A stretch of 52,668 nt of DNA, the filler included, from Streblomastix strix (taxonomy: Eukaryota), in assembly GCA_008636045.1 (NCBI GenBank). It is 2 parts of 2 records of this genome, joined end to end, with 100 filler letters (N's around TTAATTAATTAA, not from the genome) between each part and the next. Parts side by side here need not be neighbours in the genome. Positions count along the whole stretch, not along the records: positions 26,414 to 52,668 come from SNRW01000170.1; 1 more part is not named here. One strand, written 5' to 3'. Positions 2,883-50,898 of this stretch are shown piece after piece. The notes beneath the pieces are model-generated. The model made no database searches. It was not told the origin of the DNA and saw only the letters and a program-made list of their open reading frames with translations. The position numbers and the translations under genes were made by a program. Numbering within the stretch: the stretch's first letter is position 1; each line of letters starts with the position of its first letter.

Positions 2883-2908
2883 ATCCATTGATTATGATAG
2901 AGAATTAT

Positions 2909-23238: not shown

Positions 23239-23239
23239 C

Positions 23240-26413: not shown

Positions 26414-27459
26414 CTCTTGAGAATACTAATATTGTTTATCTATTATCTGAAAGCGGAGAAGTTAATAAGACTCTTGAATATCAGAGATATCATATAAGAT
26501 TTGAAAAAATGTAACACGCTGCTATCGATGATAAGATACCACAAAATTCAATTAGTTAAACTTGGAACAGCTAAATTTGATGTATTAGAGATATAAAACG
26601 TATGTTTCAATATTGAAAATGAAGAAGCAATAATTAGTATGATTCAATAACAAAAAATAATCAACTTTCCTACATAAGTATTTGGAACGTAATCATCAAG
26701 CTTTCCATTTAGTGGTTTTAGAGAAACGAGTTGTGCTATGTAAAGTATTATGCCATTCTCTAACATAAAGGCATTATTTATGACATTCACTATTCCCTAA
26801 TATCCAACATAATTTTTCCCTGCATTATTCACAGGATCAATGCTAATTATTGATTAGAATAACATTATCTCATAACCATATAAATCATTAAATTTAGCAA
26901 TTAATTTATAAATGTTTGATTTTTTCGTTGATTGAGACGTTGTTAGTGCCCAATCAGATCTATATCATTCACTTCCATTCGAGAAAATGAATTTTGATGA
27001 AAGAAAACATTAATATGGATTGATAGATATCAACGACTAATATAAAACTGCTAACATATTCTATTTAGCAACATTGCATAGTGGAAACAAAGCTATTAGA
27101 ACACTTTATTCTAACAAATATATGCTTGCATGGAAATTGGCTACTGATGATTCATTTATGCGAGGATATAACTCCTCAAAGCTATGTTCTAGAACTAATA
27201 TATAAGTGATTATGTAAGGAAATTTGACTAAAGGAATTATTGACACAACTAATATAAATCCATCATAAAACTAAAATGATACAAATAATTTATTGGTTCT
27301 AGAGCATATCCTGATCCTACAAAAGCATCTATTATTCCAATGAAGTATTACTTGAGTGATGTGTTTGTTAGAATTATATTTGATGAGAGTTGAATGCTAT
27401 AAATACTAAATATTGATGTTATTGGAGAGCTTGCTAATGGAGCTATTAAACTTCAATGA
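26414..27459 (+). pseudogene. Major-capsid-like protein type 2, C-terminal half
   Basis: INFPTQ, FSNIKALFMTF, YMLAWKLATDDSFMRGYNSSK, DVFVRIIFD..VIGEL. Homologous to 48938-50898. Frameshifts and TGAs present. Confidence 0.7.
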
Positions 27460-27482
27460 GCAGCTAAAAATAAATTTATTTT

Positions 27483-27608
27483 TCATCTACATATCTTTGA
27501 TTCGCAGGCATATTTGATTGCTGCTTCCCAAATAGTCTTAAAGATTGTGCGCCAGTTAATGTTTAATTAATCTAGAGCGTAAATGATTGTTCCATTAAAT
27601 CCATATAA
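27483..27608 (-). pseudogene. Conserved ~41-aa micro-ORF (start codon lost)
   Basis: GFNGTIIYALDQLNINWRTIFKTIWEAAIKYACESKICR*, homologous to 48795-48920. Confidence 0.75.
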
Positions 27609-27639
27609 TTTGTTTATTTTTTAAATTGTCATTCGCTAG

Positions 27640-28540
27640 CAATATTATTAATAAAATAAGTATATTTAATTTATACACTTAAAATAGCTGGTAATAATAT
27701 AAAAGAGTTAGAATTAATAATAATTTAGCCATATTAATTGGTTATGTAATCTAGACATCTATTGATATTATATGATGCAGTCATTAAATTTTATATAATT
27801 ATTGGTCCAGTAAATTTTGGTATAAAATCGTCATCAACAGTTCCTATTATGACGAGAATATCAGTTGACCCACCTAATGTAGTCCAATGAAGATATAAGC
27901 TAAAATAAGCGATGTCACTATTATGCATCACTAAAAAACCTTAGCTTTGCTCGACTACATTGTCACTCACATGAAATATACCACTTTTTTGATGTTAATG
28001 GTGGTATACGTTATTCATTAAATATTAATTAACTACTATCTTTATCGAAATACTATCCTCTATTAATATTATTAACAAGATTCATTTTTTATATCTAGAA
28101 TGTTCATTTAGTTCTACATCCTGTAGTTGTATTTGTTAATTTTTGCTTTAGTACAAAGTAAAATCATCGTACGCATTTGTTCTTACCTTTGGCAGAAAAT
28201 CATCCATATTCGATGTATCTCCATTAGCTAATAGAATTTAGCTATTTGTTCCACTTTATTTAATGAATTTACCAGCTATGAAAAGTTATAAAAATGAATT
28301 TACTCCAAGAATAAATTAATCAATATGTAAATTAACAAAATTGAAAGCATTCCTAAAGAATTAGCATAAAAAATTAAAGTACTTTATTATTTCATTATCA
28401 ATAGCTTATAATAATGTATTATATTCTTTAATTTATTCTTATTGATCTTCTTATTATTTTATTAATTTAATTACCTATTCTTACTATATAGATTATTTTT
28501 CTTCATCAATCATATCTAAATCACTTAATTATTAATCCAT
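27640..28540 (-). pseudogene. Fibre-like protein
   Basis: AGKFIKQSGTNSQILLANGDTSNMDDFLPK...LYLHWTTLGGSTDILVIIGTVDDDFIP. Homologous to 47966-48775 and shares the KFIK.GG..ILL motif with 51259-52290. Confidence 0.6.
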
Positions 28541-29809: not shown

Positions 29810-30850
29810 TTAAAACATTTAAATAGACTTACAACAGGCATTAAAGAAATAATAGAGAATGGAACAAATATTGAATATTTTGACAACGGAAATATAATCA
29901 AAAATAATAAAGATATTAAAATGTTCGAAGATGGAAAGAAGACACTAAAAAAATTAACTCAAACATATTTGAATAAGTTTTTGTTATTAGCACGTGGAGG
30001 GGGGTATGGACCAAAAAAGTATAAAAAATGACATTAAAAATTAACTGGTGATATCCGCGACGCTGGCATTCTGTAGGAAGAAGAAGTAGATTTTATATCT
30101 TATGAACCATAGGAGGATTAAAATGAAAGCAATGAAACATCAATAATCGAAGTTAGTGAAAACCATTAAAGAAATAAGTTAGGAAAGAAGTTGTAAAAAC
30201 ATCAAAAACACCACAAATTAATTATTCTAATCCCCATTTTGGTTTGGAGGAATTAATAGGGTTGAGAACTGAAAATTCATTTATTAAATAATAACATTTA
30301 GATGAATTTAAACGAAAATATAAATATAAATTAAAAGTGAAACTGTATAAGTAACTACAAAGTGTCAACTCAAATGAGTAAGCAAGTTCCTTGCTGAAGG
30401 CTACGCCGCTACCAAAATAGTTTAATGAAAAGACTAAGTAATTGAATAAGCTCCGCACGAATGCTAAGAGGAATCTGTATAGTTCGAAGAATAAGATAAA
30501 AATATTAATTTTGAATTATATTGATACGATTATTTTTTTGATCCTATAATAAAATGAATTAATATATTCTCAGAACTATTGAAGAAATTTATAGTGCAAT
30601 GACAAATAAGTATTACTTATTAAATAAGTAATTGAACGATCATAAATTTATAATTTAAACTGAAAATATAATTACTGATGCAATGTGAAATGAGTTAGAC
30701 TTAATATTTGAAATAATAGTAAATTTAGACATAATAATAAAATTATTTAAATTAATTTGATCTGAATTATTATTTTTGTTCCCTGTTTAAAATAAACAAA
30801 CAAATATATGTGTATTTGAAATAATTAGAACCAAAATTATTATAAGAATA
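29810..30850 (+). pseudogene. Hypothetical Lys-rich viral protein
   Basis: About 250 codons nearly open (GIKEIIENG...LARGGGYGPKKY...LNKLRTNAKRNLYSSK), then decayed. Confidence 0.5.
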
Positions 30851-30896
30851 CTAACTACTTAATAATGAAATTAATAACATAAAGACAAAGAAAAAA

Positions 30897-32150
30897 ATGC
30901 TTCAAATCTATATTTTATGTTAGATCATGTACGTGACATAATACTTATATCTGAAGCATATCTTTAAAACAAAACTTAGTCTAACGTTAATAACTGAGCT
31001 ATCTCCTCTTAAATTTATTTTTTTACTTACTCTTTAGACTATATTTGTTTAAATTGAGAGTGCTAAATTTCAGTGCTGCGATTCATAATTGTATGACAAT
31101 TATAAATTGACATATGTTATATTTTGTTATATTAATTAAAATGGACCTTATATTATATGTTATGGACAGATTCCATCAATTACTGCTCCCGAATTTAATA
31201 TAACTTATTATGATTAGTATAATTCATCAAAGAAAATAACTTATGATGCGAATAATGACGAAAAAATAGACATTATGGGTAAATGGAATGCTATTGGAAA
31301 TTGTTAATTTGAAGCATAATCGTATGTCTATGAAATATTTAAAATGTAAACAGATTTAATCGAAGCAGGAGTACAAGGACTTAATTGAATTAATTATTTA
31401 TACAGTGAAATTAAACTAATAGATGAATAAATGATATGTAAAACAGATAGAGCAGCATATTTATTAAAGATGGACCGTTTATCATAAATAAATTTTGGAG
31501 CAAAATTAGCATAATTAGGCGCCAATACTGAGACACAATAAATTGTATATATATTGTTTTCGACAATCAGTAAAAAATTTCTTCCAAATAATTTGAAATA
31601 TAAATGTATTCATGCAGAATAGCAGAAGTTTTCCATTATATGTTTGTTCAAAGATATATATGATAAATCATTAGCTGTGTAGGTGGCCATTAGTGGATAA
31701 TTAAATATGTTTAATTGTTAATTTTAAGGAACGTATGCAGTTGATAACTATACCGACGAATCAGAATCAAATGAAACATATACTGAAGATGTAGAACCTC
31801 ACTTCGACGTAGTAATGATAAAACATGAAGAATAATTAGGTTCATCACCACAACCACAATATACGATAACAAATGTCTATAATCAGTTTATAACTAATGA
31901 TTTTTTCCTTCATCAGCATATAAAACGTTCTATATCGTTGATGATGGCACTTGCAGAGTATGCATATTCAATCTATACTTCGAATCAAATGGTTTGCAAG
32001 GGAGAACATAAGAAGTAGATCGAATTCAGGATTAGATAATATCTGCTTATGGTAAAAGTTTGAGATTCACAGTGGCTATATTTGGAACATAGGGTGGAAG
32101 ATAGAATAATTTTTCAGTGAATTTTTTTTGTAAATGCTTAATATAAAATG
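30897..32150 (+). pseudogene. Hypothetical viral protein
   Basis: Coding-like, e.g. NGPYIICYGQIPSITAPEFNITYYD... and AYGKSLRFTVAIFGTQGG, with shifts and stops. Confidence 0.5.
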
Positions 32151-32239
32151 CTCTACTTTTAACTATCAAAATCTTAAAAGTCAATTCCATAAGATTCAGC
32201 TGATGTCTTTAAATATTGCGCTAGTGGAATGTATTATTT

Positions 32240-32398
32240 GTGAAAAAAACATTAATAAAAAGCGATTTTTGGCACGCATAAATGGCGTGGTTAATGAATA
32301 ATTTTAAATTGTTCCGAGTGTTCCGAGTATTCTGAGTCAAATAGGTTCTAAAAAAAATGCCATTCAATCCGTCAAATAGTAGAAACATGAAAAATTAA
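32240..32398 (-). repeat. Intergenic repeat M1 (reverse orientation)
   Basis: TTGGCACGCATAAATGG...GTTCCGAGTGTTCCGAGTATTCTGAGTCAAA...CATGAAAAATTAA is an inverted match to 32810-32970. Confidence 0.85.
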
Positions 32399-32459
32399 AA
32401 CAATTTACTCAAATCCAAAATTATATATATATAAATTTTATTTTTATTAAAAATAAACG

Positions 32460-32792
32460 ATGGTGATTGGTATCTATCATAAAATCAAATAATTTGTTTA
32501 AAAAGTTGGGAAAGGTCTTTATTTGGCTAATGATAATATTTATAAACAGTTCATAAAACCATTTGCTAAACCAAAACTTGCGGCTTTCGGTCGTGTAGGC
32601 TAAACATCAGGTAAAGATTTAGTTGTTGCGAGTTCATTTCTTGATTATGGTTATGGTACAGATAATAATTGTTAAATTAGTTAAGATTTTGATATGTTAA
32701 GAATCGAAGAATATTTAAGATAAAAATTGCCTTTAGATATATAGAATAGAAGTAAATAATATAGAAACAATGATAAATAAAATAATTAATGA
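32460..32792 (+). CDS. 110-aa protein with N-terminal basic amphipathic helix (candidate membrane-penetration protein)
   Basis: Intact under the Gln code: MVIGIYHKIKQFVQKVGKGLYLANDNIYKQFIKPFAKP...*. Confidence 0.7.
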
Positions 32793-32809
32793 AAAAGAAA
32801 ATAGTTAAC

Positions 32810-32970
32810 TTAATTTTTCATGCTTCGAATATCTTTCGCATTGACTGACATTTTTCATAGAATTCGTTTGACTTGGAACACTCGGAACACTCGGAACTCT
32901 CAAAAATCACTCAATAACCACTTAATTTTCTCGTGCCAATTTCAATGAAATAATTGATGTTTTATGACTC
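32810..32970 (+). repeat. Intergenic repeat M2 (forward)
   Basis: TTAATTTTTCATG...TTTGACTTGGAACACTCGGAACACTCGGAACTCTCAAAA...TTTTCTCGTGCCAA...TGATGTTTTATGACTC. Confidence 0.85.
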
Positions 32971-33038
32971 TGTGTTTCATTAATCAACGTTATTATGTTT
33001 CATTAAGTATTTATTTAACTGTTTTGTTTTTGTATTGA

Positions 33039-34755
33039 ATGTAAAAGATGAAAAGATTGTTAATGAAAGCCTCACATTTACAACAAGTAGGAACAATTGA
33101 AGAGACATTATTGGGTAATGCAATCGCTCCATTCGCTAATGATGGAGAACATCATTATTCTATCAAGGAATTCAAACTTGAATAATAAATGCCAGTGTTA
33201 CTTGATAAAAAGATGTTCATTAGTTTATCTGACACAGACAACGACATCATATAGATTTAAAATTCATTCTTATCGGTAGTGCTAACTATTAATACCTAAC
33301 TTGATAATAAATTTGATAAAATTGATGAATCATATAACGATGGATTGGTTCTATTTGTTGGTCTCAAATCAGGTTCAAATCTTATTAGAGAATACATCAT
33401 CTATAACTAAGGTTAAACCATTGATGGAAGTCTACAAAATGATATAAGAACCGAATCATTCATTTATTATACAATTAAGTTAAAAGCGAGAAAAATAATA
33501 GAATATATATATTCTCTTTATGAAAATATTTATAATTCTGATATTTCTGCATGTGGAACATATATAAATATGCGAGAGATTGAAGAATTAATAGGAAATC
33601 AAACATCTGTTCCATATGCAGTTCCAATACTTTTCAGAGTTAGTATTCCACTTGATGATCTCTTGACATTCTCTGCATTTACTGATTATCCTAATGGCTT
33701 ATTTAGTGATTTAAAAATAAAATTAAAAATAAATCCTCATGAATTCGTTTTCTGCTAAGTGAATCCAATTATTTCAATGGCAAAATATTATACAATGAAT
33801 AAAGATGAGTTATTGGGTTGGTTAGTAGAAGTTAGTGGATATTGATTTGATGATCAGAAATTGGAGTATAGTATTCTAATATACTATATAATTTACATAA
33901 CTTGGATGCATTTCTGACTTGATAACAGGATTACATGAGGGACCACTAATTGAATCAAAATTGAAAAATTTAGTATGTGACATCAAATAAGTTACCATGA
34001 GCATAAAAATTTATGTAATTTTTGATGTAACGACTAATATGGCGGGTTATAAAGCTACAGATGAATGCCTTAATCGAGTCCAATAATTCTACAGCTAACG
34101 CTTATTTGTTTTTTCTGCATAACAAATAGAAATATGACCATTTCCAACGTCTGGTACATTAATGGGAATTCAAACTTCTTAAAATAATCCTCTGTCTCAC
34201 GTAACTGATTTCTGTCCTCAAATTCTGAAAGATACTAGAGCTACTACTTGCTTTGAAAGTTCAAGCTATTAGAACAAGTAAATAACTACCAATAATCGCA
34301 ACCTTCTAGATATGCCAATGAATACGCTTGACTAACAATTCTTCTAAATTTAACTCAATGCGAAAAATCTTGACCTATTATTCGAAGCTACTGATGAATT
34401 TGATGATGCTATATCAATGCCAAGTAATACAGCAGCTCGAAGATTGAATCCTCTCTATGATTTAGCAAGTTTTTTAATAACACATTAATGTGAAAGGAAC
34501 AGCAATGAAGCATTAACTTTCGATGGACTAGACATTTAGAACCAAAACGCTTCTGTCGATTTCAGAGGAGAACCAATATATTAAGGAGCTATAGATTCAT
34601 ATTATAATATAGATATCAGTGGAAAGATACCAGTACCTCCAATTCTATGTACAGTTCATGATACATTTTGGTTGTTTTCACCCGCTGCAGGCGGAAGCTG
34701 TATATATGGTACTAACCGTTCATTTGATGATGTTATTGGATCACTCAGTTCTTGA
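33039..34755 (+). pseudogene. Major capsid protein type 1 (double jelly-roll inferred, metamonad Maverick type)
   Basis: LFVGLKSGSNLIREY, TESFIY, SLYEN, CGTYI, SIPLDDLLTFSAFTDYPNGLFSDLKI, CERNS..TFDGLD, PPIL...DTFWLFS. This motif order matches recalled Trichomonas-type Maverick capsids. ~570 codons with several shifts. Confidence 0.8.
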
Positions 34756-34869
34756 AACAATTAAGTCATAAATTGAGAATATATATATATAACTTACACC
34801 TAATCATTAATGTAGTTAATTAAATAATTTATTAGATATATGAATTATTTTTTATTTATTTTATAATAA

Positions 34870-35265
34870 ATGTCTTCAAATAAGGCTTCAGTTTAAAATT
34901 TATCAAATTGCACTTTAAAAAAAAAAGATGGAGTTGCTATCGCATAGAAAGATTAGATTGGATTTGATTTTGCATTACCATATGCGTTTGTAAATTCAGA
35001 TAATTAAAGAAAAATAATATTCTGCTAATGTCATTGTTCAAACTAAGGCACTAACGAGAACATAAGCGTTCATAATTCAACGATTCGAGAAGAATAGTAT
35101 TTCAATTAATTCGTTGGCTATTGTAATGAATAACGAGTTTATAAGCCTTTCATCAAATACAACCACAACAGATATTTATATGTTTGGTTCGGTTAAAATT
35201 AAGAATTATTGGACATAAATTAAAATTAATTAAAATTTATTCTTGAGTTGATGCTAGAATACTGA
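34870..35265 (+). CDS. 131-aa beta-rich protein, probable minor capsid (penton-like)
   Basis: Intact ORF right after MCP: FDFALPYAFVNS...FNQFVGYCNE...YVWF...KFILELMLEY*. The penton call is inference from position and recalled Maverick homologues. Confidence 0.6.
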
Positions 35266-35420
35266 AAAGTCTAGTGCTAAAATTTTGGTAGTAAGTTGAC
35301 GCGTGTATTTTTGTTTAAATCATCGGGTCGCGCTAGGTGGAGAAAAAGCCCCCTAGAAATATGATTTATAAATTAATCGTTTTATTTTTTTATAAATGTA
35401 ACTTTTTATCAGTATATAAA

Positions 35421-36270
35421 ATGGAAGCACAAGCTGCAGCTACTCAACAAATTACATCAAACAATGATATTATCACATTTGGTTCATATATGATGTTTAT
35501 AATAATAATTCGTGAAAATGATGGATATATTAATGCAACAAAATTAATAGCTTAAATTAATGAACGAAAATATACGAACAAATAATTATGAAATGTAATA
35601 AGACACCCAATGAATAGAGACTACAAGTAATTTTTGAAAGAATAATCGGCTGGTTCACTTATGAGCAAGTACCTTCTTGAATATCAATTAGTGAATGAAT
35701 ATATAAATGATGTTAGAGGAATATATATTCGTAAAGATTTAATTAATATAATACATATAAAAACACCAATACAATATTTATATCTTATTAATTAGATAAT
35801 GAATGTATTTAATGAAATCGTATAAATCGAATTCTAAGCTCAAGACTATTAGACATTCATGGCTGATTTTGTGGAAGAAAAGGTTTAAATAATAATTGAA
35901 GAATAAAAAGTTTAATTGATTAAATAGATAAGGAAATAAATAATTGGAAATATATGCTGTCCCAAATGGTTATCAAACAGATTATGCGTTCGCAGTTCAA
36001 GTTGAAGATGATGACAAAAATAATACAATTTTAAAGGTTCGAAGAAGAAATAAGAAACGTATTAGCCATAAATTGAAGCAAGAATTAAAAGATGCATTGT
36101 TATATTACGATTAGGAATGTTTTGCTATGACCAAAAATGAATCCATCAAAGATTAATTATAAGAAACATTTAGAGATTAAATATAATCTCATAAGTGCAA
36201 ATTCATCTTTAAACCTGAATTAATGGATGAAGTCAATAATTTTATAATGCATAAGATGGAAGACAAATGA
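35421..36270 (+). pseudogene. KilA-N domain protein
   Basis: IIIRENDGYINATKL ... VRGIYIRKDLINII, then coiled coil and a C-terminal domain. One TGA and one frameshift. Confidence 0.85.
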
Positions 36271-36302
36271 ACAGTATTTTAATTTATTTTTGTTGAAATA
36301 AA

Positions 36303-36660
36303 ATGGAAAGAATATTATTTTTCAACAGAAAACAATTAACTCTCTTCAAACTAATAAATAGAAACGGAGGAATAGGAAGAAATTCCACTCGAGGAGGTGG
36401 TCGAAGGATAGATTAATGGAGCTAAATATTTTGAGAGTTTAAGCGACTTCAAATAATTTATTTCCTAAAATCAATAATAATTATCTAAACAAACAACGTA
36501 AAAATTATATAAATTATATAAATTGGACGGCTATAAGTTATCAAAAATAGAAGGTCAAGTATGCATAACAACTTGAATTACAGATTAATTGAATAGGATT
36601 TAGTAAAAATTAGACAAATTTTTGGACGTTCTGAGTCATTTAGTCGAAGAGCTGAAATGA
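36303..36660 (+). pseudogene. Small hypothetical Maverick protein
   Basis: KYFESLSDFKQFISQNQQQLSKQTTQKLYKLYKLDGYKLSKIEGQVCI... ending in TGA at 36658-36660. Confidence 0.55.
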
Positions 36661-36870
36661 ATGACTTTTGAATGTTCCGAATCAAATGAGATCCATTTAA
36701 AATGCCAGTTTATGCATCAGAGTCGAAAATGTTAATGAAAAGCGTTAATTTGACTAGAGAAAATGGAATCGATTATGATTATCTTAAATATTGTCCGAAT
36801 GCCCCAACCTAAAGAGCATTTTTAACTAATTATAGAAATTAGCTACCAATATGCTAATCTGCCAAATTTT
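36657..36870 (-). repeat. Intergenic repeat M3 (reverse, degenerate, partly tandem)
   Basis: ATGACTTTTGAATGTTCCGAATCAAA and GAGTC...GAGAAAATGGA...CCGAAT. Loose inverted match to 38880-39030. Confidence 0.6.
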
Positions 36871-36889
36871 AATGTTGATCTTTTGCGTA

Positions 36890-37722
36890 TCAAATTATTT
36901 TAACATTTATTCCACTTAATTCATATTATACCACTAACGCATATTATTTAGTTAGTCGTAAGTACTCATACAATATTGTTTTTTTAGCTGATGGTATAGA
37001 TGGTTAATAGAAAAATTAATTAAATTTTAATCAACTAAATGAAACAAAGAATCATAATGAATCAGGATTTGATTTAATAGCAGTGTATAAACCAATGATG
37101 TCTTATAAACAAAAGAGGTGTGTTATTCCAATATATTTGTTCTTAAATAACTGCTAAAATAAATGATTATATATATATATGTATTTATTGCTTCATCAAA
37201 TAAAACAATATTATGGAGAAATTTAACGTCAAAATTTCCTTTTCCATTTGCTCCAAACATATTGGTTAATATTTCATCATTTGCTTGTTCAGATAATTCT
37301 TTTTATTATTATTTTCCTAATATTTCATTATATACATGTTTACATTCTATAAAATCATTCAGAACTTATTTTTCTTCAGCACATGGAACAATTTTAGTTA
37401 GAATTTTAATTAAATCTTTCATTTATTTATAAGTAATGTCATTTTTTTAGTCGCTGAAGCATATAAATTAAGCGTAACAATGCTTTTTTAATTAGCTCAA
37501 TTTAAATAGCTCTTTGAAAACATTGTATGTCTTACCACTACCACGCTATCTTATCAATAAATTTACAGAGTTATATGTATAATTTAATTCTTTATGAATA
37601 ATTGTTTAAATTTCATGCATATTAACTTTTATTTCTATATGCATGCTATCTTCTTTTTTACGTTAAACTCACTATTTTTACATAATAAAACATTTTTTCA
37701 GTAAGAATTAGAATGTTTTCAT
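36890..37722 (-). pseudogene. A32-like (FtsK/HerA) DNA packaging ATPase
   Basis: NSVNLLIRQRGSGKTYNVFKELFKL (Walker A, first Gly mutated), HNIVLFDEA (Walker B), ITHLFCLQD, IKSN. Frameshift near 37445 and TGAs. Confidence 0.85.
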
Positions 37723-37754
37723 AAACAGAATAGCAAATTCAATAAATAGTCAAT

Positions 37755-38830
37755 ATGGAAGAAGCAATCGCAACACAAGAATTTGAATCAAAAGGAAGCT
37801 AATGTTCAGGTAGATAATCAGGTGCTGGTGGTAGTTTGATAGAAGTTGATAAAATGGAGGATGATTACGATTAATACAAGTCACATCCTGCAGGAAAGGA
37901 CAGAATGAAATCACGAGCAAAACCGTTTGAAAGGCTGTCGTTCCATCCATCAATGATTCAAAGTGCAAGAAAGCGTGAGGTCCATAATTTAGAGAAGAGG
38001 AGGAGGATGTCCTTGTTACACTTGTTGCTAATTTAAGCAGAGATACTAAAAAGATTAACAGGTTATCATCTACCGTTAGTGCATAAAAATATATTTTAGA
38101 TAAACATTTGGGCAAACGATTTAGTGTTTCAAAATATTACTTAGATAATAATGAAGCCACTCCTGATAATGTGATTATTTATGAAAAGAAAAAAATGCAA
38201 TTAATTCAGTCAATGGTTTTACAACAGCTGGAAGATTTGGTGATAAATACCAATAAGATAAAAGAAATTTGAAGAAATAATATTATACAGATGTTAATGA
38301 ATTAGAACAAACAGCATTTACAGCGAAATTAAAATAATAAGGAATAAATGGTGGTCCTTATATGAATTGGCTATCAATAACTAAGTCCCATAAAGTAAGA
38401 GAAATAAAACTACATGGTTTCAGAGCATTCGCTGTCGATGCAAAAAAAAATTATGGACCAAAATGGAGATGCAAATTTCTCAATGGTTACCAAATAACAA
38501 ATAATGGCTTTTGTTTGGAATTATGTATTTATTACTCCTTCTGTTGGAATATTAGAATAGTTAGTCGGAAAAATAGATTTATAAAACAGAAATAATAAAT
38601 TAAATGAAAAATTTAGAGAGTACGAATAGTTGCCAATTGCTAAAAGAATTTATAAGAAAAAATTGCCATCCATTATTGTTTGACTATATATTGATTAGCA
38701 GACTAATAATAAGATTGCATAGGCTCTTGGATATGCTATGTAATTTTATAGAAATATCTTAACTTAAATTTAACAAAACATCAATGGTTATGAATTAGCT
38801 AGATACAAGTTCGCTTAAAATAATCAATGA
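37755..38830 (+). pseudogene. Hypothetical Maverick protein
   Basis: MEEAIATQEFESKG...YLDNNEATPDNVIIYE../YSVNGF..., multiple frameshifts. Confidence 0.55.
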
Positions 38831-38879
38831 AAAATAATAAAATTAACGTTGTAAATAAGCATATATTTATTTTTTCTCA

Positions 38880-39030
38880 ATTGTTAGCCAAATGTCCAGT
38901 TGGCCACAGCATTTTATAAAAGTTTCTGACTCGATGCACTCGATGTATTCGGTGAAGTCAAAAGTCGTTCACTAACCAATCCATTTTCTCGTGCCATTTT
39001 CAAAAATGCTGACGCTGCTTTGTGACTCGA
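38880..39030 (+). repeat. Intergenic repeat M4 (forward)
   Basis: CAGCATTTT..AAAGTTTCTGACTCGATGCACTCGATGTATTCGG..TCAAAAGTC...CCATTTTCTCGTGCCA...TGACTCG. Confidence 0.8.
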
Positions 39031-39089
39031 TACGCACAATAACAATCCAGTCTATTAATGTAATTATTTTTTATTTTTATTTTTAATGA

Positions 39090-42000
39090 ATGGCAGATAA
39101 ATAGGGGTAAGACTTATAAAGACGACGCACGCCTCCGATTGTGCCTCCGTTAATGACTCAATAATTACCAGAGCTATTACCATTAAATTTTCCACTTCAT
39201 CAAACGCTCAGATAAATATAATATTAAATGACTAAAATGTAAGAACATATATGATAGGCGCAAGCACGCGATTATTAACTAATGTCATAATTATAAACAG
39301 AATAATAACAATAAATATTAATGTATGACTATATTACGCAAATGTAAGCATGTAATTATTAACTATCAACTGAATTATAAATAAAGCAACGACAATAATA
39401 ATTGATATAAATGCAGAATTATATAACATAAAAGTAAGCACGGAATTATTAACCATCACCAGAATTATAAATATAATAAAAAATGGAACAACAATCAGAA
39501 CAACGATAACAACTTCTACCAATTCAGGATTAACTATTGGATCTAAGGAATAAAAAATTAACTCCAAATGTTATAAGAGAATTAATGATTTTATATGACC
39601 CTGAAACATAATAGAAAATAAATGTTAATGAGTTGAGGTCATAATTTTCAAAAATTTTAGATAAAATCGGTTTAAATAACTGTAGAAACTATAGAGATAT
39701 AGTTAGAAATGTAATCTTATAATCAGAACCATTTGCAAGACGCATCAGATAAGAGATTCAATAAGGCCTTCAAAACGAACAAATTATCGGTGATGCTTAT
39801 GCTAAATAATTTTTGTAAGAATTGAATAATATATAGCATATGAACGCTTAAGACGAATAGAACCAACAGCACAATTAATAATGCTAGCAAGTTATGGAAG
39901 ATTAGCGAGTCAGACATGCAATTTTATTAAAAGAAATTAAACAATAAAAAATAAACCTTAAATAAAAATAAAATGAGGAATTGTTCAAAAATGTTAAAGA
40001 TAAAATAAAAGAATTTGATGATGAAAATAAAGGTAAGATTTTTATGACAATTGATGCTCTTAACATCATGCAGAGTACAATTATGCTATGTGAGCCACAA
40101 CTCGAGTTAGATTATGATTGAAGAATTAATTTTGAGTGAAAACATATGAAAAATTATCACATCAAATATGACCAACTTTATGTTCATACAATCAATCCTA
40201 AAAATGAATATTACAAAAATGATTTTAAGAACAATTGAAGTTGTTGATGCTAATTTAGATGAAATATATTAGCAAGAATAAAAATTTGCATTCAAAATTG
40301 CGTTTTATTTTGGAGTGATTATTGAACGAGTCGATGGTTAAGAAAATGAATAGCAAATAATGTATAAAAATATTCATCCCCATGACGCTAGAACAGAGAT
40401 AAGAGCTCAAAAAAACATCCGCACTCAATTAGATTTAGTAGAATAAAAAAGATACATTAGTAACCACATTATTCAAATGTAAGAGAGAACCATCATGGAC
40501 ACCAAAGAGAAAATAGTTGGTATATTTTCAATAATGATTCAATTATTCAGATCATCACAAGCAGATACAGGCGATCGTACAACGCCTTCATTAAAGAAGC
40601 ACATTATGAGGCGAGATATTCGATATATTGACTCTGAAAAATATAATTAAAATTTATGTTTCTTTCTAATATATTGCTTTATTACGATGTCAGACATAAA
40701 TCCAGACGGTGTAATGGTGATTAAACATGAGAAGGAACATTCATATATTGCTGAAGATAAACGATTATTATAAAGAATCTATGAAAAAAATTGATGATAA
40801 TTTTTTAAATATTTAATTTTACTACAGAAGCGGATTAATTTATTTAGAATGAAAATTTAAATATAAATGTATTCGCTTACGTAGAAACAACGGCAACATC
40901 AAATGATTCAACGGTAAATGGCAGTTATTATCTCTGAAAATAATATAGAAGAAACAAATTGAACGAATGAATAGAAGAATTTATTGTTCTTTTAATTAAC
41001 GGTCTACTGTTCAACAAAAAGCTCGCATTTTATATAAATGATGTTGAGGTACTAACTGGTTTAAAATATTGCCCTATCTGTGGTATGCAGGCTTACAAGA
41101 CCAGAGATTCAAATTTGTAATATAAACTAAAAATGGACATATAAAAATGTTGAAAAATGGAGAAAATATAGTAAATAAAAGTTTATTTAGAAAGATTTCC
41201 AAGACCATATGTTCCACACATTTTAAATAATATTAGCTATAAGTATCTTTTGGCACATGGTAGAGAGGATGAATTCAAACCTAGAAATATTATTATAACA
41301 TACGATATTAAAACAGTTGAAAGAATCGCTAATGAAAAATTATGTGATAATTCAAAATAAATTTCAAAATTAGAACCATTATCGAATGTGAGTATAATAA
41401 AAATAAAAAATAAAGTTGTTGATGTCGCAGACGCTGGTTCCATTGATTAAATTTATTCCATTTATTTTGATAAATAAACTCCTAACTTCATTAATGTATG
41501 GATTAAATAATTGTTTATAGAAGCCAGAAAAATTATTGATTCAAACAAATATGAAGATGAGACGATACCATAGCATTATGAGGTTCCAGTAATTGGTTTC
41601 AACTCTTCAAAGTTCGATGTTGCATTGATTCTTAAAAATTTATAAAGCGATTAATAGCAAATTATTAAAAATCTTAGAAGTGGTTTAAATGCAAAATAAA
41701 TCATTACTAAATATGACATATCTGGAATCAAATTGGGATTCATTGATACGATGATTTATTGTACGAAAATTAAATTTAAACTATTCATAAAAGATTTCAC
41801 ATATAAAACAATGTAAAGCATTCCATCGAAGTTAAAATTTCCATATGAATTTATTAAATACGATAATTATAATGAAATAATTAATAATCCTTAACCATTT
41901 CCGATTGAAGCGTTTAGAAATTCAATTAAAAATAAAAATATAACTAAAGAGAAATACTTAAATTATTTAGCTGTTGCACAGCAATATTCGAACAGGTGGG

Positions 42001-44130
42001 ATTATTTTCGACACTACAACCTTGAAGACACTCGCTTAATGATTCAGCCGTTGGATTGTATAATTGATATGTTCTTTAATTAAAAAATTGACATGAAATT
42101 TATGTCAATGTCTACATGTGCTAATGTTTTCAAACATGTACTTGCTTATTGCGACTTCAAATTGTACTAAGATTATACGCCCAAAGATGATAATGCATCA
42201 TTTGTACTTACATAAAATTATTGGAACATTAAATTTTAAATTTATCTAAAATAAGAAAATAGAAGAAATATAGACTCAAGCAACAACATCAAAGAAACCG
42301 ATTGAGCGTTCTACAGAAAATTATTTCTGTCGACAAGATGCCGCATACGCAAGGCACAATTCACAATCAAAATTTCTCCAACATTAGATAGAATTAACAA
42401 CAACAGGGGTCATTTTGTAGATAACATAGAACCGTGCTGCTTATTTTGTAACAAATTTAAGTCAAATAAATTTGAAAATTTTACCCTTTTAATTATATAA
42501 CTGAAAAATTTCTGTCTTAGAAAGTCGCTACCTATGACAATAACCGATGAAGAAGTTTATTAAATTTTACGTTCTGGTATCACAGGTGGATTATCGCAAG
42601 TCATGCATCGCTATAATGTTGCAGGTGAAACTAAAATAAATTAATTAAAATTTATTAATGGAAAGGTCATTAGTTAAGACACCGAGCACACTATGATCAA
42701 TCTTTTAACTCTAGATTTCATTTGTTAATATCCTTCTGTTGTGATCTCAGAGCCGCTTAAGTTCATCAAAAATATGGGTAAACGTTTATACATGGCGGGA
42801 CAAATATTAGATAAAATTACTGATAAATAAATAGTAAGAAATTTAGTTTATAACCACCAACGATTTAATGACGTTGAAAGAATGCCTTTATTTATCGCAG
42901 TTGTTAAAGGACTCGTCGATGAATAATATATAAATGATTTTATTAATTTTCTTCCAATACTGAGAAACATTGATATAATGACCGATTAAAAAACATTAGG
43001 CTCATACATGTATAATCTGCTGCTGATGAATAATATGTTGTACGACAAAATTGAATTAAAATTAATAAATTTATCATCGACGCATGAGTAGTTCGTGTCG
43101 TTCAATAACTATTATTTGTGGCTTCTCAATGATAATTTTTATTTCATTATTGATGATAATTAATGTGTTATAATTTTCTCGAAGCATGACAGATTCAATC
43201 TATTTGTTAAGGAATTGATAAGTCAAAGAATATGGACAATTAATGAAAAAAATAATGGAAAATAATAATTCTATAAATTAGCTATGAATTCAAGCTATGG
43301 AAGTGATGGAATGAATTAAGAAAAATATTCGCAAACGAAATTGTTGAGCTTTGATAGGACATGGTTGTCTCATCTCTAAGGTTCATTCGTTAATGATTAA
43401 TAATTAACAGATGATTTATTTGTTGTATAATTTAATACTGAGAGCTGCAACTGCAACACTTGCATCAATTCTGCGAATTTCGCGTTGGATAATAGCAAAT
43501 ATTGGTACCTTAATTTTATCTATAATTTTATAGTTAAAGCTTTCGATACGAACAAGATGCTTTATTTTTGTGGTGATACTGATTCGATGACATGGGCCAT
43601 CAGCGGCAACTCTGACGCAGAAAAAGGATATAGACAGAAATTTAAATATTTATTCATGGACTAGAAATTATTCAATGAAAATTATCCACTTTTCTTCGGT
43701 TAATATAAACAAATATTGGGAGTCAGTTATGAGGCAGAAAGAACGGCATGCATTGCTTTAGCACCTAAAATTCATTATATTTATAATCATAAGCATTATG
43801 AGAATAAAAAAGATTACAATTGTTGTTTAAAAGGAAAAATTTTAAAAAAAATTATTCTATTGAACGAAAAAGGATACAAATAATCATTATTGGAAGAAAA
43901 AATTTATGCTAAAAATATTAGTCTTGATTAAACAAATAAATAAATATCAAAAATATATAATTAAAGTTGGATTAACATTAATTCGTATTAAAATGGGTTT
44001 TCCTGAAAATTATTGTTGTGCTCTATATCTATATATAAACGGATAACAAATGAATTCAGATAATTATGTCATCGAGAAAAATAACAACGAAATCTGTGAA
44101 ATTGACACGATAAATACGAATAGAAAATGA
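39090..44130 (+). pseudogene. Second, divergent pPolB polyprotein with HNH insert
   Basis: Asn-rich N-terminus, NLCFF, YCPICG, ITYDIKT, IGFNSSKFD, KFPYEF, HYNLEDT, PTLDRINNNRGHFVDNIEPCCLFCN, GITGGLS, LDFICQYPS, KLAMNSSYG, GDTDS, ALAPK. Many lesions. Confidence 0.92.
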
Positions 44131-44220
44131 ATGTCTTTAAAGTATTCTGAATGTTACAAGTGTTCTAAATCAGAAATTTTCATCAAAAAAATACTGCCAG
44201 CCTGCCATTCTACTAGATTG
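44068..44220 (-). repeat. Intergenic repeat M5 (reverse)
   Basis: AGTATTCTGAATGTTACAAGTGTTCTAAATCAGAAATTTTCATCAAAAAAATACTGCCAGCCTGCCATTCT is an inverted match to 46055-46143. Confidence 0.85.
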
Positions 44221-44276
44221 TTAATTGATTTTATTAATGAATTGAACATAAATTGTTTTATTTTTGTAAGAAATAG

Positions 44277-45641
44277 ATGTAAATTAAAATTAGATTATAT
44301 TAGAAAATATGTAGGACATTTGCTGATGGTAAATATCAAAGAAATGAATATGAATTTGAAGTATAATAAGATACCGATGATAAGGCATTTTAAATTTAAT
44401 ACTAAATGAATCTATGACAGTTCATAAAAATTTCTTTAAAATTGTAAATAAAAAATACATTGAAATTATGATTGAAAAAATGCTAATGAAATAATTATTG
44501 GAATTCAAACAGTGATGGATTAGTACTATTATTACATTTAAGTTTAATAGTAATTTGAATCTACAAAATAAATGAAAAAATAAAAAAGTAAACAATTGGA
44601 TAAAGACGTTCAATCATTCTCATCAATTTAAGGTGGCAACGATGAAAATATGTCCTATTTTCCTTTCAAAACAAAATTAAAATTGTTTGAAAAATCAATA
44701 AATAAAAATATGCTAATAATCAATACTTACCTGTTATAGGTTATAAATTAAAACAATTGCAAAAACTGCAATGACCGTATTTCTCTTCAAAGTTGGGCAG
44801 TTAGGAAACAGATATTGTCTTTTCTGTCGATTAAGACTGGCAGGAGAATAATGATGAATATGATGCTGCAATCATTGAAGAAAATGAAATATTAAATGAG
44901 AGAGAAAAAAGAATAAAAACAGGTATGTACATATTTTGTATAACCACTAATACGAAATATTTAGAGATATATCCTTTGATAAATAAATCAGCTGCATAAG
45001 TAGTCGGATAATGAAAAAACCAATAAAAAATTATTAAATAATATTCGTGATGATGGAGAGAAAGGATCTAATGGTTCTTATTTTATTCATAGGATAAAAT
45101 TGATTGTAATTTCACTGATTCAAAATTCACAAATCATAATAGAGCTGTAGTGCCAGTTATTTGTACGATAAGGAATGCATTTTATTATAAATTTAATTAA
45201 TTTTCAACGAATAAATAAATGTTAAATGTCGTTGATATATACAATGATACTCCTCATCTAGCATTTTAAAATAAATATAGCTCATATTAAGTTCAATTGT
45301 CAATATATTTAGAAGGATAATATATACATTCATAAATGAAGAAATTAGAGCGACAATTAGTAAGACAACGATAACAGAGCATATTATCATTTAAAGCAGG
45401 AAATATAATATTGATACATCTTGATTTCTAAAAAACATAATAGAAATTTATGAAATAAAGGAAAAATTTTAATTTGTTAGCAGAGTTCATTCGATACGTG
45501 AATGGTAATGTTTTATGCAGATTATTGAATCATTCTTATAAAATAAATATAATAAAAAAACCTTCTTATTATTGTAAATATGTTAGTGAAAATAAGGAAT
45601 CACTTCCAGAAAATTATGCTATAGAATTTTTATTTAGATGA
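44277..45641 (+). pseudogene. Retroviral-like (RVE/DDE) integrase of Maverick type
   Basis: RPYFSSKLGSQETDIVF, YIFCITTNTKYLEIYPLINKS, YIRDDGE, NHNRAV..VICTIRN, VDIYNDTPH, GNIILIHLD, RKNF. Several frameshifts. Confidence 0.8.
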
Positions 45642-45690
45642 AATAAAATTTATAATTATTATTTATTTTTCATTTTTTATCGTATAATAA

Positions 45691-46022
45691 ATGCCATAAT
45701 CGGTTAATCAGTGTTACAGCACAAACAGAATCAGCCGAAATCGAACCATTAAATTCATCGAAATAAGGTTGGCAAAAGAAATATATCGATAAAGAATAGG
45801 CAACGATTGCTGCTAGCGAATAACGCAAAAATGCAAGAATTAGATATAAATTAAATCAAACAGATTATGTTTCTAAAGTCAATGATATGCAATTATTGAT
45901 GATTAAAAAACTTAAAAAAATAATTTTGAACAATAATGATTTATAACCAATTAATGAACACATTAGAATATAACAAAGACCAAGACATTAATGAAGATGT
46001 TAATGACTAAATCAGCATTTGA
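45691..46022 (+). pseudogene. Small basic hypothetical protein
   Basis: KQGWQKKYIDKEQATIAASEQRKNARIRYK. Frameshifted. Confidence 0.45.
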
Positions 46023-46054
46023 ATCAAACAATTTACTTTTATTATTTTTATTCA

Positions 46055-46260
46055 TTTCTGGCAGAATCGTAGGCTAGCAGCATTTTTTGATGAAAGTTTC
46101 TGTCTCGGAACACTTGGAATACTCGGAACACTCAAAAGTCATTTATTACTCAACTCAATCTATCGTTACATTTTCGAATATTTCATTGATGTTTTATGAC
46201 TCGGAACACTCGGAACATTCAAACATCAATAAAGAACAACGTCAATTTCTCACAACAATT
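46055..46260 (+). repeat. Intergenic repeat M6 (forward, tandemly duplicated core)
   Basis: AGAATCGTAGGCTAGCAGCATTTTTTGATGAAAGTTTCTGTCTCGGAACACTTGGAATACTCGGAACACTCAAAAGTC...TGATGTTTTATGACTCGGAACACTCGGAAC. Confidence 0.88.
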
Positions 46261-46599
46261 CACTCTAAATATGTATAAAATTCAATGATTTATTCAATGT
46301 TTTCACCAATAATTTTAGACTTTCATTAACCAAATTCATTAATAATTCCATCAGTCTACCTATGTAGTTGTGTGAATTTGACGAGTGCCATATGTACAAA
46401 GAATATGACTCAAGAATGGGCATCATTTGCATACGTCACCAATTCAATTCAGTAATCATTATCAATCATGTCATTCATTAATTTAAACCATTTGAATATT
46501 CTGTCTTAAATTAACGAAGTACAGATATTTCCATACATTAAACAAACATATTTATTTACATAACATAATTTATTTGCTTTATTTATTTAATTTCTTTAA

Positions 46600-47880
46600 T
46601 ATGGGGTACTCGTCATATTCACATTTCTACCAATTTATTAATTTCTGAAGTCAGAACCTCCGTGCGATCACCAGTGGCAGAAATTAATATCTTTGAAGAA
46701 GTCTAATTACATATGATGCACTACGCACTTTTATGAAAATGTTCCTGTGTGCGGTATTATTGGAGACAAAATAGTTATTTTTTCCGTCCTAACATTCTTT
46801 TAATTATAATCTTATAACTTGAAGCTGGTAATCGTGTCACTGGTCTCTAACCGTAGAATTTTCTTGATGTTTACGCTATTGATTCAATAAGAGTAAAATT
46901 TTCCTTGTATTCTATTAAAAAAGTATATTCACCTTATTTAAGCATTTTGATTTAGGATTTATATTGACCATGTTAGTATTCAGCACATGTGATGTGATTT
47001 TTATAATCAAGCAGTTTTTATTACTATTCGGAGTTGAATTCCTCAAGTGTTGCATTAAATCTTTACATATGTAGAAATAATATTTCTGCTTAAAGACAAG
47101 TATCAAATAAGTCAGTGCTGTTTTGAGGCTCTATCAATAGTCATGTTTTTCATGGAATGTAGATGAAAATATTTTATAAATGGAAAGAGGGTATTTATTA
47201 TAAAGTAGAGACTGCGAGTGCTCATGTAAATCATTCTCTTCTCAATAATATTTTGAAATTTTCCAATGAAAGTCTTGTAAGTAGCATTATCAATACCCAA
47301 AAAGAAATTATCTTGAAGGACTCCATTAAAGTCTTCAATAATCTCGTTTAAAACATTAGTTAGCATTGCCTTTTATTTCAAGCTATCATTCACGATCAGG
47401 GAATCATCACTTGGCACACTTTCTGTAATGTGTTCACCGTCAAATTCTAGTCTCAATCTTTTTAATGGATTTGAACATTCACTTAATTTTGTTTCTTTCA
47501 AGTTTCTTGCATCAAGGAGATTAAAAGAAATAATTTTGTTATTTATTATTCCAATAATCTCAATAATCTTTTATTTTACATCGCCTCCGTAGTTGTTAGG
47601 TTCAAAATCTTCTTCGTCTTCTTTGATTTCCCTTTTAATTTTATTTTTTCTCCTTTTCATTTCTGTTTCTCATTCTTCACTTATTTCTGATAACTTGTTC
47701 TAATCATTTGAAGAAAAACGATGTGAATCCATATTCAGAGCAATGAACAACAAAACGAAGCTCCTGAGTTGAGCCATATATTCCTTTTCCTTCAATATTC
47801 AATATGACTTGAAGTACCTTCCAATTAATTCTTTTTTGACTTGATAATCAATCATTAAAGTGGTACGCTTTCCTGTCATA
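46600..47880 (-). pseudogene. Decayed hypothetical gene with Cys/His-containing C-terminus
   Basis: Coding-like stretches (MLTNVLNEIIEDFNGVLQD...; CLQQYRTQEHFHKSAQCIICN) with many shifts. Family not recognised. Confidence 0.35.
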
Positions 47881-47965
47881 TTTTTTTAAAAAAGCTATTA
47901 GATTCGTTAATCTAAAAATCAATCAAACAATAAACGTAATCAAAACATTTCTATCTCCTATTTAC

Positions 47966-48775
47966 ATGGATAAAATTACAAAATATCGAGGGGCAAGTAA
48001 TTAATTACTTTTAGCTAATGGCGAAACGTCTGACTTAGATGATTTTTTGCTAAAATTACATTCTTTTACATATGGTGATTTTACACTATAACCAACTCTT
48101 TGAATTGATGATAAGTTAGGAGTTATAAAAATAAATAGAGGAATCAATAAAGATTTAGATAATAATTTATATTTAGGCTCTAATGTATATGATAGTATCT
48201 AAATCATCGACGGGCACCCCGTGCTTCTTCCAACGTTAGAATATAGCTGAGCATTAAATTCTAAATTAACAAATACTACAACAGGATTCAGAAATGACCA
48301 GCCATTTTAGATATAGAAAATGAGGGATATAAATGATTTAAATAAAAGTATATATATATCGATAAAGAATGCAATTTTTTAAAATTCAATGGTTAACCTA
48401 TTGTTCAACTAACAGCCAAATCAAGAATATTTCTCACAGGTGATTATGTCGTTAGTCTAAGCTAAAGCTTATTAGTTTTGCATAGCAGCGGTATAGTTTA
48501 TATTATAGCGTATCTTCATTGGACGTCATAAGGTGGTTTGACTAACATTCCCGTCACTGTGCGGTATGTTGATGAAGAATTTATCCCCCCATTTTTCTGA
48601 CCGAGTGATCATGTAGCATTTAACAGTTTCTTCACGAAATATAAATTAATATATCGACTGTATAATCAATCAGCGGGGCGAGGTCATCAAAAATTCAAAT
48701 TCTCTTACAATTTTACCGTCACCATTAAATGATGAAATTAATGGCACATATTTTATTAATATCGATGTAAATTGA
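47966..48775 (+). pseudogene. Fibre-like protein (probably 5'-truncated)
   Basis: GASNQLLLANGETSDLDDFLLK...AYLHWTSQGGLTNIPVTVRYVDEEFIP. Homologous to 27640-28540. Confidence 0.6.
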
Positions 48776-48794
48776 AATTTTTAAAATTATATAA

Positions 48795-48920
48795 ATGGAA
48801 GGCTTTAATGAGACTATAATTTATGCCTTCGGTTAATTAATTTTAAATTGGGATGCTATATTTAAAACCATTTGGGAAACTGCAATAAAAAATGCTTGCG
48901 AGAGTAAGATATGCCATTGA
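48795..48920 (+). CDS. Conserved 41-aa micro-protein
   Basis: MEGFNETIIYAFGQLILNWDAIFKTIWETAIKNACESKICH*, intact. Homologue at 27483-27608. Confidence 0.8.
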
Positions 48921-48937
48921 CAAATAATTATTTCTGT

Positions 48938-50898
48938 TCAACTATTGCGAATCATTGAGCCCCCATCTCTCCAATCACCTCCATACTAAGCACTTATGGG
49001 TCTGGATTATCATCAAACATTATCCGAACTATTGCATCACAAAGATAGTGGGTAATCGGCGACAAACCAACCAGTACAGGGTGAGAATATGCTCGTATGG
49101 TAATAAAATACTTAAAATCATTTTAGTTTTATTTATCGAGTATATGCATTGTTTCATTAATTCCTCTCACTAAATTGCCATGTAAAATAACCAATATATT
49201 TGTTTTAGCACTAATTTTTGAAGAGTTATATCCTCGCATAAATGAATCATCTTTGGCTAATTTCCAAGCTAGCATACATTTATTTGGATATAATGTTTTT
49301 GTCTCTTTTGTACCAGCACATAAAGTAGTAGCATAAAATATATTTGCGTTTTTTATAATGTCTGCATCAGTATGCGCATAAAAATCTTTTTAATCGTTTA
49401 TATTTTTATTCTCAAATGTAAGCGAATGATACAAATCAGAGGGAGCACTAACGACATCCTAATCAACGAAACAATCAAACATGGCACCATTAACAGTCTA
49501 AATAAGTGCTTCGTACGGGACAGGATCCACATAACGCTAATCGATAACCAAATCAAAGTTGAGGAACAGGACAGGGAAAAACCACGTTGGATATTAAGGC
49601 ATGGCAAAAGTCATAAACATAGCCTTAATGTTTGAGAATGACATAATACTTTGAAGACTTCCGCTATTATTACCAAAATTATTAAATGTAGAAATTGGAA
49701 GATTACGACCTTAATACTTAAGTGGGGAAATAAATAATTTTTTAGATTTGAATTAGTTAAATTATCTCTTCTTCATTTTCGATATTGAAACATACATTTT
49801 TTATCTCCAATTTTGTAAATAGTGCATTTTAAATTTAGCTAATGGTGTTCTAAGGTGTTTTAGCACCAACTTCGTCGCTTTGCATATCAACCAATCTAAC
49901 ACTATATTTCCTGCAACTATAAATATTAGTGGCTGTTACTTTTAATAAATTTATTATATCTGATTTTTCAGGGGGTATCATTTGGTAAGCTAAATTATTA
50001 TTAAAATAGAATCTGTTTTATTTAGCCAAACAACCTTTAAGTCCTACAGGAAACCCTGCATTCAGAGCTATAAATATTATGATGCATAATTTCTTGTTAG
50101 CTCAGGAAAAGAATTAAAAATCGGGATCAATTGATTCAAGTCTAAAATACCACTAAATACAATATCATGATGCATTTTATAATAATAATTTGTAGTTGCC
50201 GCTTAAGTATTTATATCACTCATTTTCACGTCTACAAATATTCCACAGTGCCGTTTTCCTGCTACAATGCTTTCAAGTGGCAAAACGCTGACGGAGTTAT
50301 TAGTCCATAAATCTCTTAATGAATTTGAACATATTACGGCTTGCTCTCTTGCATAAATTGATGTATCCCATAATTTCATACTATCTTTTCATATGGCAAA
50401 TTAATTAAATCGGCCGCAAGCAGTGGAAAATCCAAGCTAAAAGTGTAGTACTTCCGTTGGGTCTATAGCATAGCTTTATTATGCAGCTGTCATTGTTAGA
50501 TTAGCAGCTATTGAATCTAGTGGGTTAGCTACAGAATTAAAATTAACTGCTAAGTTTACCGTGTCTGGATCTACTATTACGCGGCCATCATCTATTTTGT
50601 TTAATTATATCGCTAATGTATTTTTGGGTATCGTAATTGTCCAATTTACCTAGCAAGTTTAAACCATGGAACATATAGCTGACCCTCTTGCAGCTAGTGG
50701 AGCACGGGTATATTTAACACCTGCGGAATTTAATTGAGTAAGTGGCTGGTCAAAAAATTCTTATTTTGATATGGTGAAAGATTATGAGTGTATGCTCATG
50801 GTTTTCAATACCTCACCCATCGCTATATAGCCATTATTATAGTCCGAGTGTTGCATTTTTGCGGGAAGACTTAAATAATCGCTTGAGTTGAATGACAT
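48938..50898 (-). pseudogene. Major-capsid-like protein type 2, full length (~650 codons)
   Basis: MSFNSSDYLS..., FQLGFSTACGRFNQFAI, AREQAV, LESI..HCGIFVD, ILDLNQLIPIFNSFP, MLAWKLAKDDSFMRGYNSSK, DAIVRIMFD. Same motif order as the type 1 MCP. Confidence 0.7.

Follow-up and report, generated by a model that had tools for sequence, protein, structure and literature searches.

The window analysed here is a 52,668-nucleotide stretch of the Streblomastix strix genome (assembly GCA_008636045.1), composed of two contigs joined by a run of N at 26314-26413 and with a GC content of ~26%; the part after the join is SNRW01000170.1. Our subject is a viral element at 32-46 kb in that part, together with a repeat family, M, that lies between its genes. 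The window genes are readable only with genetic code 6, which gives 169 open reading frames (ORFs) of at least 90 aa versus 2 under code 1, and their closest protein relatives carry the source label Streblomastix strix. Code-6 endogenous viruses of this oxymonad are recorded within the Metamonada capsid group in the part of that account available to us (PMC10120064). Judged by its protein-primed DNA polymerase B (pPolB), major capsid protein (MCP), packaging-type ATPase and integrase, the element is a Polinton-like member of the metamonad group. Its genes are interrupted by frameshifts and stop codons, which marks it as a decayed copy. The family is large: 18127 contigs from one run align to 30001-49999 at 80% likeness. 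For this M-bearing copy we found no pair of terminal inverted repeats (TIRs) and no 5-6-bp target-site duplication, and a protease gene was not identified. The preliminary description of the locus had noted six related repeats in strictly alternating orientation and had considered that they might be the ends of genome segments. The alternating layout is real and unusual, but the segment reading is not supported.

Five clear M copies of ~170 bp and one degenerate copy, M3, lie between the genes in the order -,+,-,+,-,+ (Table 1). The search profile was built from the five clear copies (M1, M2, M4, M5 and M6, with M6 entered as two units) and never included M3. Each of M1, M2, M4 and M5 is recovered when left out of the profile (E 3e-11 to 4e-23, with M6 always kept in). 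The six repeats first described are retained, five of them clear by profile. M3 is weak: aligned locally with the other copies it scores 44-68, a range that overlaps the shuffle maxima (39-58). The chance of strict alternation for six copies is 2/64 = 0.03, a value that requires counting M3. All copies are built alike: besides a 5' arm they contain three 9-bp iterons and a TTTTCTCGTGCCA-type box, and they include the beginning of a second 96-bp unit. Identity over whole copies is 0.46-0.69. The 5' arms are pair-matched, as had been proposed, for M1/M2 (0.68) and M5/M6a (0.73), against 0.36-0.52 for the remaining 13 pairs; the M3/M4 arms are not specially matched (0.42). M fills most of each spacer, and the edge of M1 touches the last codons of gene X. 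The profile search gives no further copy in the 52.7-kb window (next match E 3.1), so that M, which is dispersed, intergenic and iterated, is confined there to the M-bearing viral element. It is without TIRs or target duplication of its own. A pattern scan of viral contigs returned a single match, in an unrelated GC-rich context. M was also considered as a structured RNA and rejected, with no Rfam match in 31900-46700 and no consensus fold (-0.33 kcal/mol for the aligned strand).

Table 1. Features of the M-bearing element and of contig A, the first part of the window (positions along the whole window).
Feature	Position	Strand	Remarks
Gene X, probably structural	31119-32242	+	tblastn of fused database models, matches 31119-32234; conserved C-terminus reaches M1
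Repeat M1	32245-32409	-	nhmmer, leave-one-out E 2.7e-17
Small amphipathic-helix ORF	32460-32792	+	Adjoins MCP in relatives, conserved
Repeat M2	32801-32970	+	5' arm, three 9-bp iterons, TTTTCTCGTGCCA box, start of second 96-bp unit
MCP gene, broken into three frames	33048-34755	+	Homologue fold matches double jelly-roll (DJR) capsids
Putative minor capsid protein (mCP)	34869-35265	+	Position and similarity to L019 post-MCP ORF, tblastn E 3e-7
KilA-N domain gene, broken	35421-36270	+	Pfam PF04383 E 6e-4, under curated cut-off
Small ORF, family F4, ends approximate	36300-36610	+	tblastn E 1e-6; convergent with ATPase as in relatives
Repeat M3, degenerate, partly tandem	36656-36865	-	Partial matches 36865-36725 and 36682-36656, each E ~2e-4
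Packaging-type ATPase gene, frameshifted	36893-37644	-	tblastn E 1e-24 with relatives' ATPases
Hypothetical gene, broken, ends approximate	37755-38840	+	Divergent from ATPase; no family match
Repeat M4	38861-39028	+	Leave-one-out E 2.7e-11
pPolB gene, broken, start approximate	39282-44076	+	Last codons touch M5
Repeat M5	44067-44247	-	Leave-one-out E 6.9e-13
rve-type DDE integrase gene, broken, start approximate	44515-45641	+	Similarity to relatives
Small ORF after integrase, ends approximate	45691-45994	+	Integrase followed by small ORF in models P0128 and P0213
Repeat M6	46033-46290	+	Full copy M6a 46033-46201, tandem half copy M6b 46197-46290
Free-standing pPolB-only element, contig A	11998-18315	-	183-bp TIRs, 97% identical

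The blocks of genes between the repeats agree with the earlier listing: the amphipathic ORF, then MCP, an ORF in the mCP position, a KilA-N gene (weak match) and a small ORF, then ATPase and a hypothetical gene, then pPolB, and then the integrase with a small ORF. For MCP, a low-confidence model of the homologue P0062 (pLDDT 45) has DJR capsids as its top matches in PDB and BFVD (E 4e-4 and 1e-4). pPolB has 54 homologues, many with PF03175. A profile-free HMMER search finds 313 relatives of the integrase at E<=0.001, and another search, for longer integrase homologues, found none. The rve matches in three of 33 integrase relatives are weak, below the Pfam cut-off, and source names also support the rve type; a cluster look-up of 10 integrases returned names and no contigs common with the MCP or pPolB lists.

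The gene order in other copies of the family was compared using database gene models. These often fuse neighbouring same-strand genes and hence record local order, opposite-strand neighbours being invisible; they inform the junctions M1, M2 and M5, and the repeat itself is visible in three models. Among 68 long MCP models, 67 of them source-labelled Streblomastix strix, 45 contain MCP alone and 23 have upstream neighbours. All 23 fit the order of gene Z, a fiber-like gene, X, the amphipathic ORF and MCP, with X in 14 and the amphipathic ORF in 14 (13 by classifier and P0118). Coding sequence of the ATPase, integrase, small ORF or hypothetical gene lies upstream of MCP in 0/23. Exchange of M2 with M4 or M6, or a flip of the MCP block on M2/M3, should yield models in which MCP is preceded by the hypothetical gene, integrase, small ORF or ATPase. 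None is seen; the cassette inversion suggested earlier thus has no support for the MCP block. Just before the MCP start, three other models (P0065, P0085 and P0114) have a repeat that agrees with M2 in position and orientation. P0085 was considered as an exception carrying the hypothetical gene before MCP and was rejected, as its match is the repeat and not that gene. An order of MCP followed by integrase depends on a single weak call (E 4e-4), which we treat as noise. Further along, among 54 pPolB and 150 integrase matches, pPolB followed by integrase is kept in P0019, P0211 and P0269, and integrase followed by the small ORF in two models (Table 1). In P0097, P0115, P0121 and P0120, a fiber-like long protein with many short tandem repeats is encoded upstream of gene X; no such gene was detected upstream of X in the copy studied here.

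We then compared the element with relatives in other hosts, namely 40 loci drawn from collections of metagenomes and genomes, plus 20 whole contigs of the genome bins G001 and G002. The relatives are unsegmented: one contig carries pPolB, integrase, ATPase, the amphipathic ORF and MCP, in an order that varies. Local pairs are nevertheless kept, namely amphipathic ORF|MCP, pPolB|integrase and the convergent ATPase|small ORF. The amphipathic ORF|MCP gap is 36-148 bp in the relatives (six loci) versus 255 bp in the window, and the pPolB|integrase gap is 14-221 bp (12 loci, 10 of them <100 bp) versus several hundred bp. The M profile matches neither the 40 loci (best E 1.1) nor the intergenic DNA of 19 G001 contigs (best E 0.49). 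Since M is absent and the spacers are short in the relatives, M2 and M5 represent a later, lineage-specific filling of ancestral junctions. One whole relative of 11.85 kb (L014, 1-11850) has 142-bp TIRs at 98.6% identity and no internal inverted repeats; it encodes pPolB, ATPase, the amphipathic ORF and MCP, with no integrase detected. Its sister copies L011 and L013 adjoin host genes.

Absence from these relatives would also suit a small parasite, similar to a miniature inverted-repeat transposable element (MITE), that settled in tolerated intergenic sites of the virus and alternates by chance, the p value of ~0.03 for alternation leaning on the weak M3. However, M has neither the TIRs nor the target duplication of such an element, zero copies occur in the other 38 kb of the window, and the same position before MCP is held in other copies, making this origin the least credible of those weighed here. 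An unrelated MITE scattered at random, which had been put forward as a test of the original proposal, is likewise not what is seen within the window, where the profile search places M specifically in the viral element.

A post-pPolB array in one group of relatives was tried as a counterpart of M and rejected, being unrelated to it. This 45-46-bp tandem array, variable in copy number, lies directly after the pPolB stop codon (L006:5150-5354, L019:1315-1473, L029:867-1034 and L013:12879-13040). Bacterial genome bins (L034-L041, G001-G004) hold many viral-element contigs, with 43 pPolB and 40 MCP matches in G001, probably as contamination by host DNA. Protein-guided scans of viral contigs found no relatives, and an MCP scan of genome contigs found none.

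The proposal that M marks the ends of separately replicated segments of a multipartite virus, integrated as a concatemer, draws on the inverted pair that bounds every block and on pPolB lying alone between M4 and M5. A free pPolB-only element with TIRs does exist in contig A (Table 1), and pPolB-only contigs occur in G001. These contigs, L101:1-6033 and L107:1-4534, are essentially pPolB alone with identical end overlaps of 127 and 122 bp; they may be circles, tandem units or amplification artefacts. The contig-A pPolB has ~1700 codons with one stop and one frameshift, and neither an integrase nor a target-site duplication was found for the element, which may be a non-autonomous, self-replicating mini-element. 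The likeness drawn earlier between the pPolB-only block and this element holds in that the element is real and carries pPolB alone, but its TIR repeat, which contains 68-bp units, belongs to a family unrelated to M. Bidnaviruses are pPolB viruses with TIR-bounded segments, near-identical TIRs and separate molecules. Neither near-identical TIRs nor separate segment molecules are seen for the window element: true TIR pairs are near-identical (97% in contig A and 98.6% in L014), but M2/M3 (0.48) and M4/M5 (0.55), which bound the MCP and pPolB blocks, are among the least alike M pairs, and the best pairs reach 0.69. Abutting ends would place two repeats at every junction, where a single one is found, and the copies are divergent. 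The genes keep their order and orientation across M1, M2 and M5, in all informative MCP models and in the three models that join pPolB to integrase, and the relatives are unsegmented. Segment ends are thus a very improbable explanation of M. A second copy of the contig-A element, 88% identical, ends with the same terminus near 2880, and an unknown gene piece is repeated (87-88% identical) at 2895-3459, after the TIR of the first pPolB element, and at 22179-23239.

We favour, with a probability of about one half, the reading that M, which bears iterons and is specific to the lineage, is an intergenic control module of a single linked Polinton-like genome, and not a set of segment ends. M would have spread through the viral genome within the host lineage, and the iterons would be bound by a viral or host DNA-binding protein, with the KilA-N protein as a candidate. 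The module may then act as a promoter, enhancer or terminator boundary that starts or ends transcription. Recombination between directly oriented neighbouring copies would remove essential genes, so that such arrangements would not persist and alternation would be left. While pPolB replicates the element, the close inverted neighbours, 0.4 and 1.8 kb apart, could pair within the displaced single strands, and we propose that M1/M2 and M5/M6 have matched arms because such fold-back pairing homogenises close inverted pairs. The calculated DNA duplex energies are -73.5 kcal/mol for M1/M2 and -60.1 kcal/mol for M5/M6 versus ~-19 kcal/mol for shuffles, and -201.6 kcal/mol for the contig-A TIR pair. 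The fold-back panhandles suggested in the preliminary description are plausible for these two M pairs, but weak or absent for the pairs around the MCP block (M2/M3, -15.2 kcal/mol, at shuffle level) and the pPolB block (M4/M5, -27.9 kcal/mol).

Several observations weigh against a control module in a fixed genome. The orientation of M is not simply tied to transcription, since the only copies directed towards a gene start are M2 and M4; M3 sits between two stop codons, and the sole divergent junction, ATPase|hypothetical gene, is without M. Several of the 23 MCP models represent divergent subfamilies that may be without M, and the same-strand view of the models leaves room for flips of small cassettes. 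Order is not uniform across subfamilies, with gene Y followed by integrase in two models and pPolB followed by Y in one. The amphipathic ORF is missing from 8/14 models spanning X to MCP, which may reflect exon skipping, absence or inversion. Contig joints fall at repeats (38811>32869, 46023>32810, 36500>38866, 45671>38893 and 46219>30904). Finally, the heavy cover by related contigs stops at M6b, where the summed depth, which does not equal copy number, falls from 14800 to 420 in adjacent 100-bp bins.

A rival reading is that the M copies are working recombination sites, on which the small cassettes between outward-pointing pairs (amphipathic ORF; ATPase and hypothetical gene; integrase and small ORF) would flip while flanking modules would swap at M between subfamilies. 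Flips would be neutral under alternation, because each gene retains the same M face upstream. The missing amphipathic ORFs and the end of heavy cover at M6b are consistent with this, as are the matched arms and stable duplexes of M1/M2 and M5/M6, and in one group of distant relatives (L006, L010, L019 and L021) the amphipathic ORF is divergent from MCP. In other copies, different arm types are found at one position: an M4-type arm occupies the position before MCP in three other models, and in one contig the start of the amphipathic ORF is linked to an M6-type arm lying on the other strand, which argues for conversion or exchange between M copies. The joints at repeats could be genuine exchanges. 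Their shorter side, where given, is <=42 letters and within a repeat, and we rejected contig joints and loose ends as a test of exchange, since they are too short to separate it from cross-mapping. The contig alignment covers one sample, and among its best 15 of 410 and best 15 of 62 joints there is no opposite-strand joint with unique sequence on both sides. DDE integrases act on ends. The integrase here is of this type, and no tyrosine or serine recombinase family was found among the 94 ORF pieces scanned. In addition, ATPase stands before MCP in none of the 23 models, so that no flip of the MCP block is seen, and the M copies have diverged too far for homologous exchange to be efficient today. 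Working recombination sites are therefore an unlikely explanation, and we hold as equally tentative the wider picture of a shufflon-like modular eukaryotic DNA virus whose modules are chained by an alternating repeat, with small cassettes that flip and terminal modules that swap.

The drop in cover at M6b, which resembles a module boundary, can also be read as a terminus. M would then be the terminal repeat of the family, with M6 as the present right end and the internal copies as non-functional relics of repeated nested or tandem insertion followed by deletion. The number of tandem units in M is variable (M6 and M3), similar to the 68-bp units in the contig-A TIRs, and several decayed viral copies are clustered on the contig. 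The accessible portion of a recent report (bioRxiv 10.64898/2026.10.13.758929) describes both tandem accretion and modules bracketed by repeats. However, the sequence to the right of M6b is not a unique host flank: it still has related contigs (summed depth 400-850), other contigs join it to the small ORF region, its first 300 bp are repeated at a lower level, and a 281-bp contig bridges the cover boundary with zero differences. A left terminal copy was not found in the window by the profile search. M1 is not an end, because X is linked across it in 14 models, and M2 and M5 split ancestral gene pairs that are otherwise undisturbed, which nested insertion is unlikely to do twice. Relics of terminal repeats are thus a doubtful origin for the family. 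The SNRW01000170.1 part is a cluster of decayed viruses from at least two subfamilies, in which 26584-28142 and 48263-49811 are inverted copies, 66% identical, of a second-type capsid-like region flanking the M-bearing element; gene Y and a fiber-like gene accompany both regions.

Gene control, and the reason why modules reassort so often, are open questions in Polinton-like viruses. Both can be addressed within a single genome where, as here, a family is present in high copy and a defined module recurs at its junctions. A regulatory M would be a first candidate for a control element of this group comparable to the homologous regions (hrs) of baculoviruses; if it is a crossover site, it would provide a mechanism for the module swapping inferred by recent surveys. 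The result also cautions against taking inverted repeats in decayed copies for segment ends.

The nearest known group is that of the Metamonada Maverick-Polinton and Polinton-like endogenous viruses (PMC10120064; bioRxiv 10.64898/2026.06.19.733378). As far as the available parts of these sources go, its members share with the window element a divergent DJR MCP, ATPase, pPolB, rve integrase, many host-genome copies and, as reported for the Streblomastix elements, code 6; internal repeats are not mentioned in those parts, whereas the window element has an alternating family at six junctions. The earlier statement that no such architecture is known in Polintons is nearly right. Our literature search, thin on subscription papers and excluding the supplements of PMC10120064, found no alternating internal repeat family described for them, and no six-fold one. 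Internal repeats that bracket replication modules are, however, reported for Polisuviricotina (bioRxiv 10.64898/2026.10.13.758929). In the portion of that report at hand, non-TIR repeats likewise set a replication gene apart from the capsid module, but there they enclose a replicase gained in addition, in most cases pPolB together with its integrase; M recurs six times, splits pPolB from the integrase and lies in a conserved gene order. The baculovirus hrs are dispersed, intergenic, protein-binding repeats that serve as enhancers and origins and bind a viral regulator, according to the text available (PMC6669502). Like M, they are dispersed, lineage-specific, iterated and intergenic, and M is predicted to have a similar regulator-binding or enhancer role. 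The hrs, as described there, are imperfect palindromes in a large circular genome, whereas M carries direct 9-bp iterons, is polar and alternating, and belongs to a small element in which replication is expected to start at the ends.

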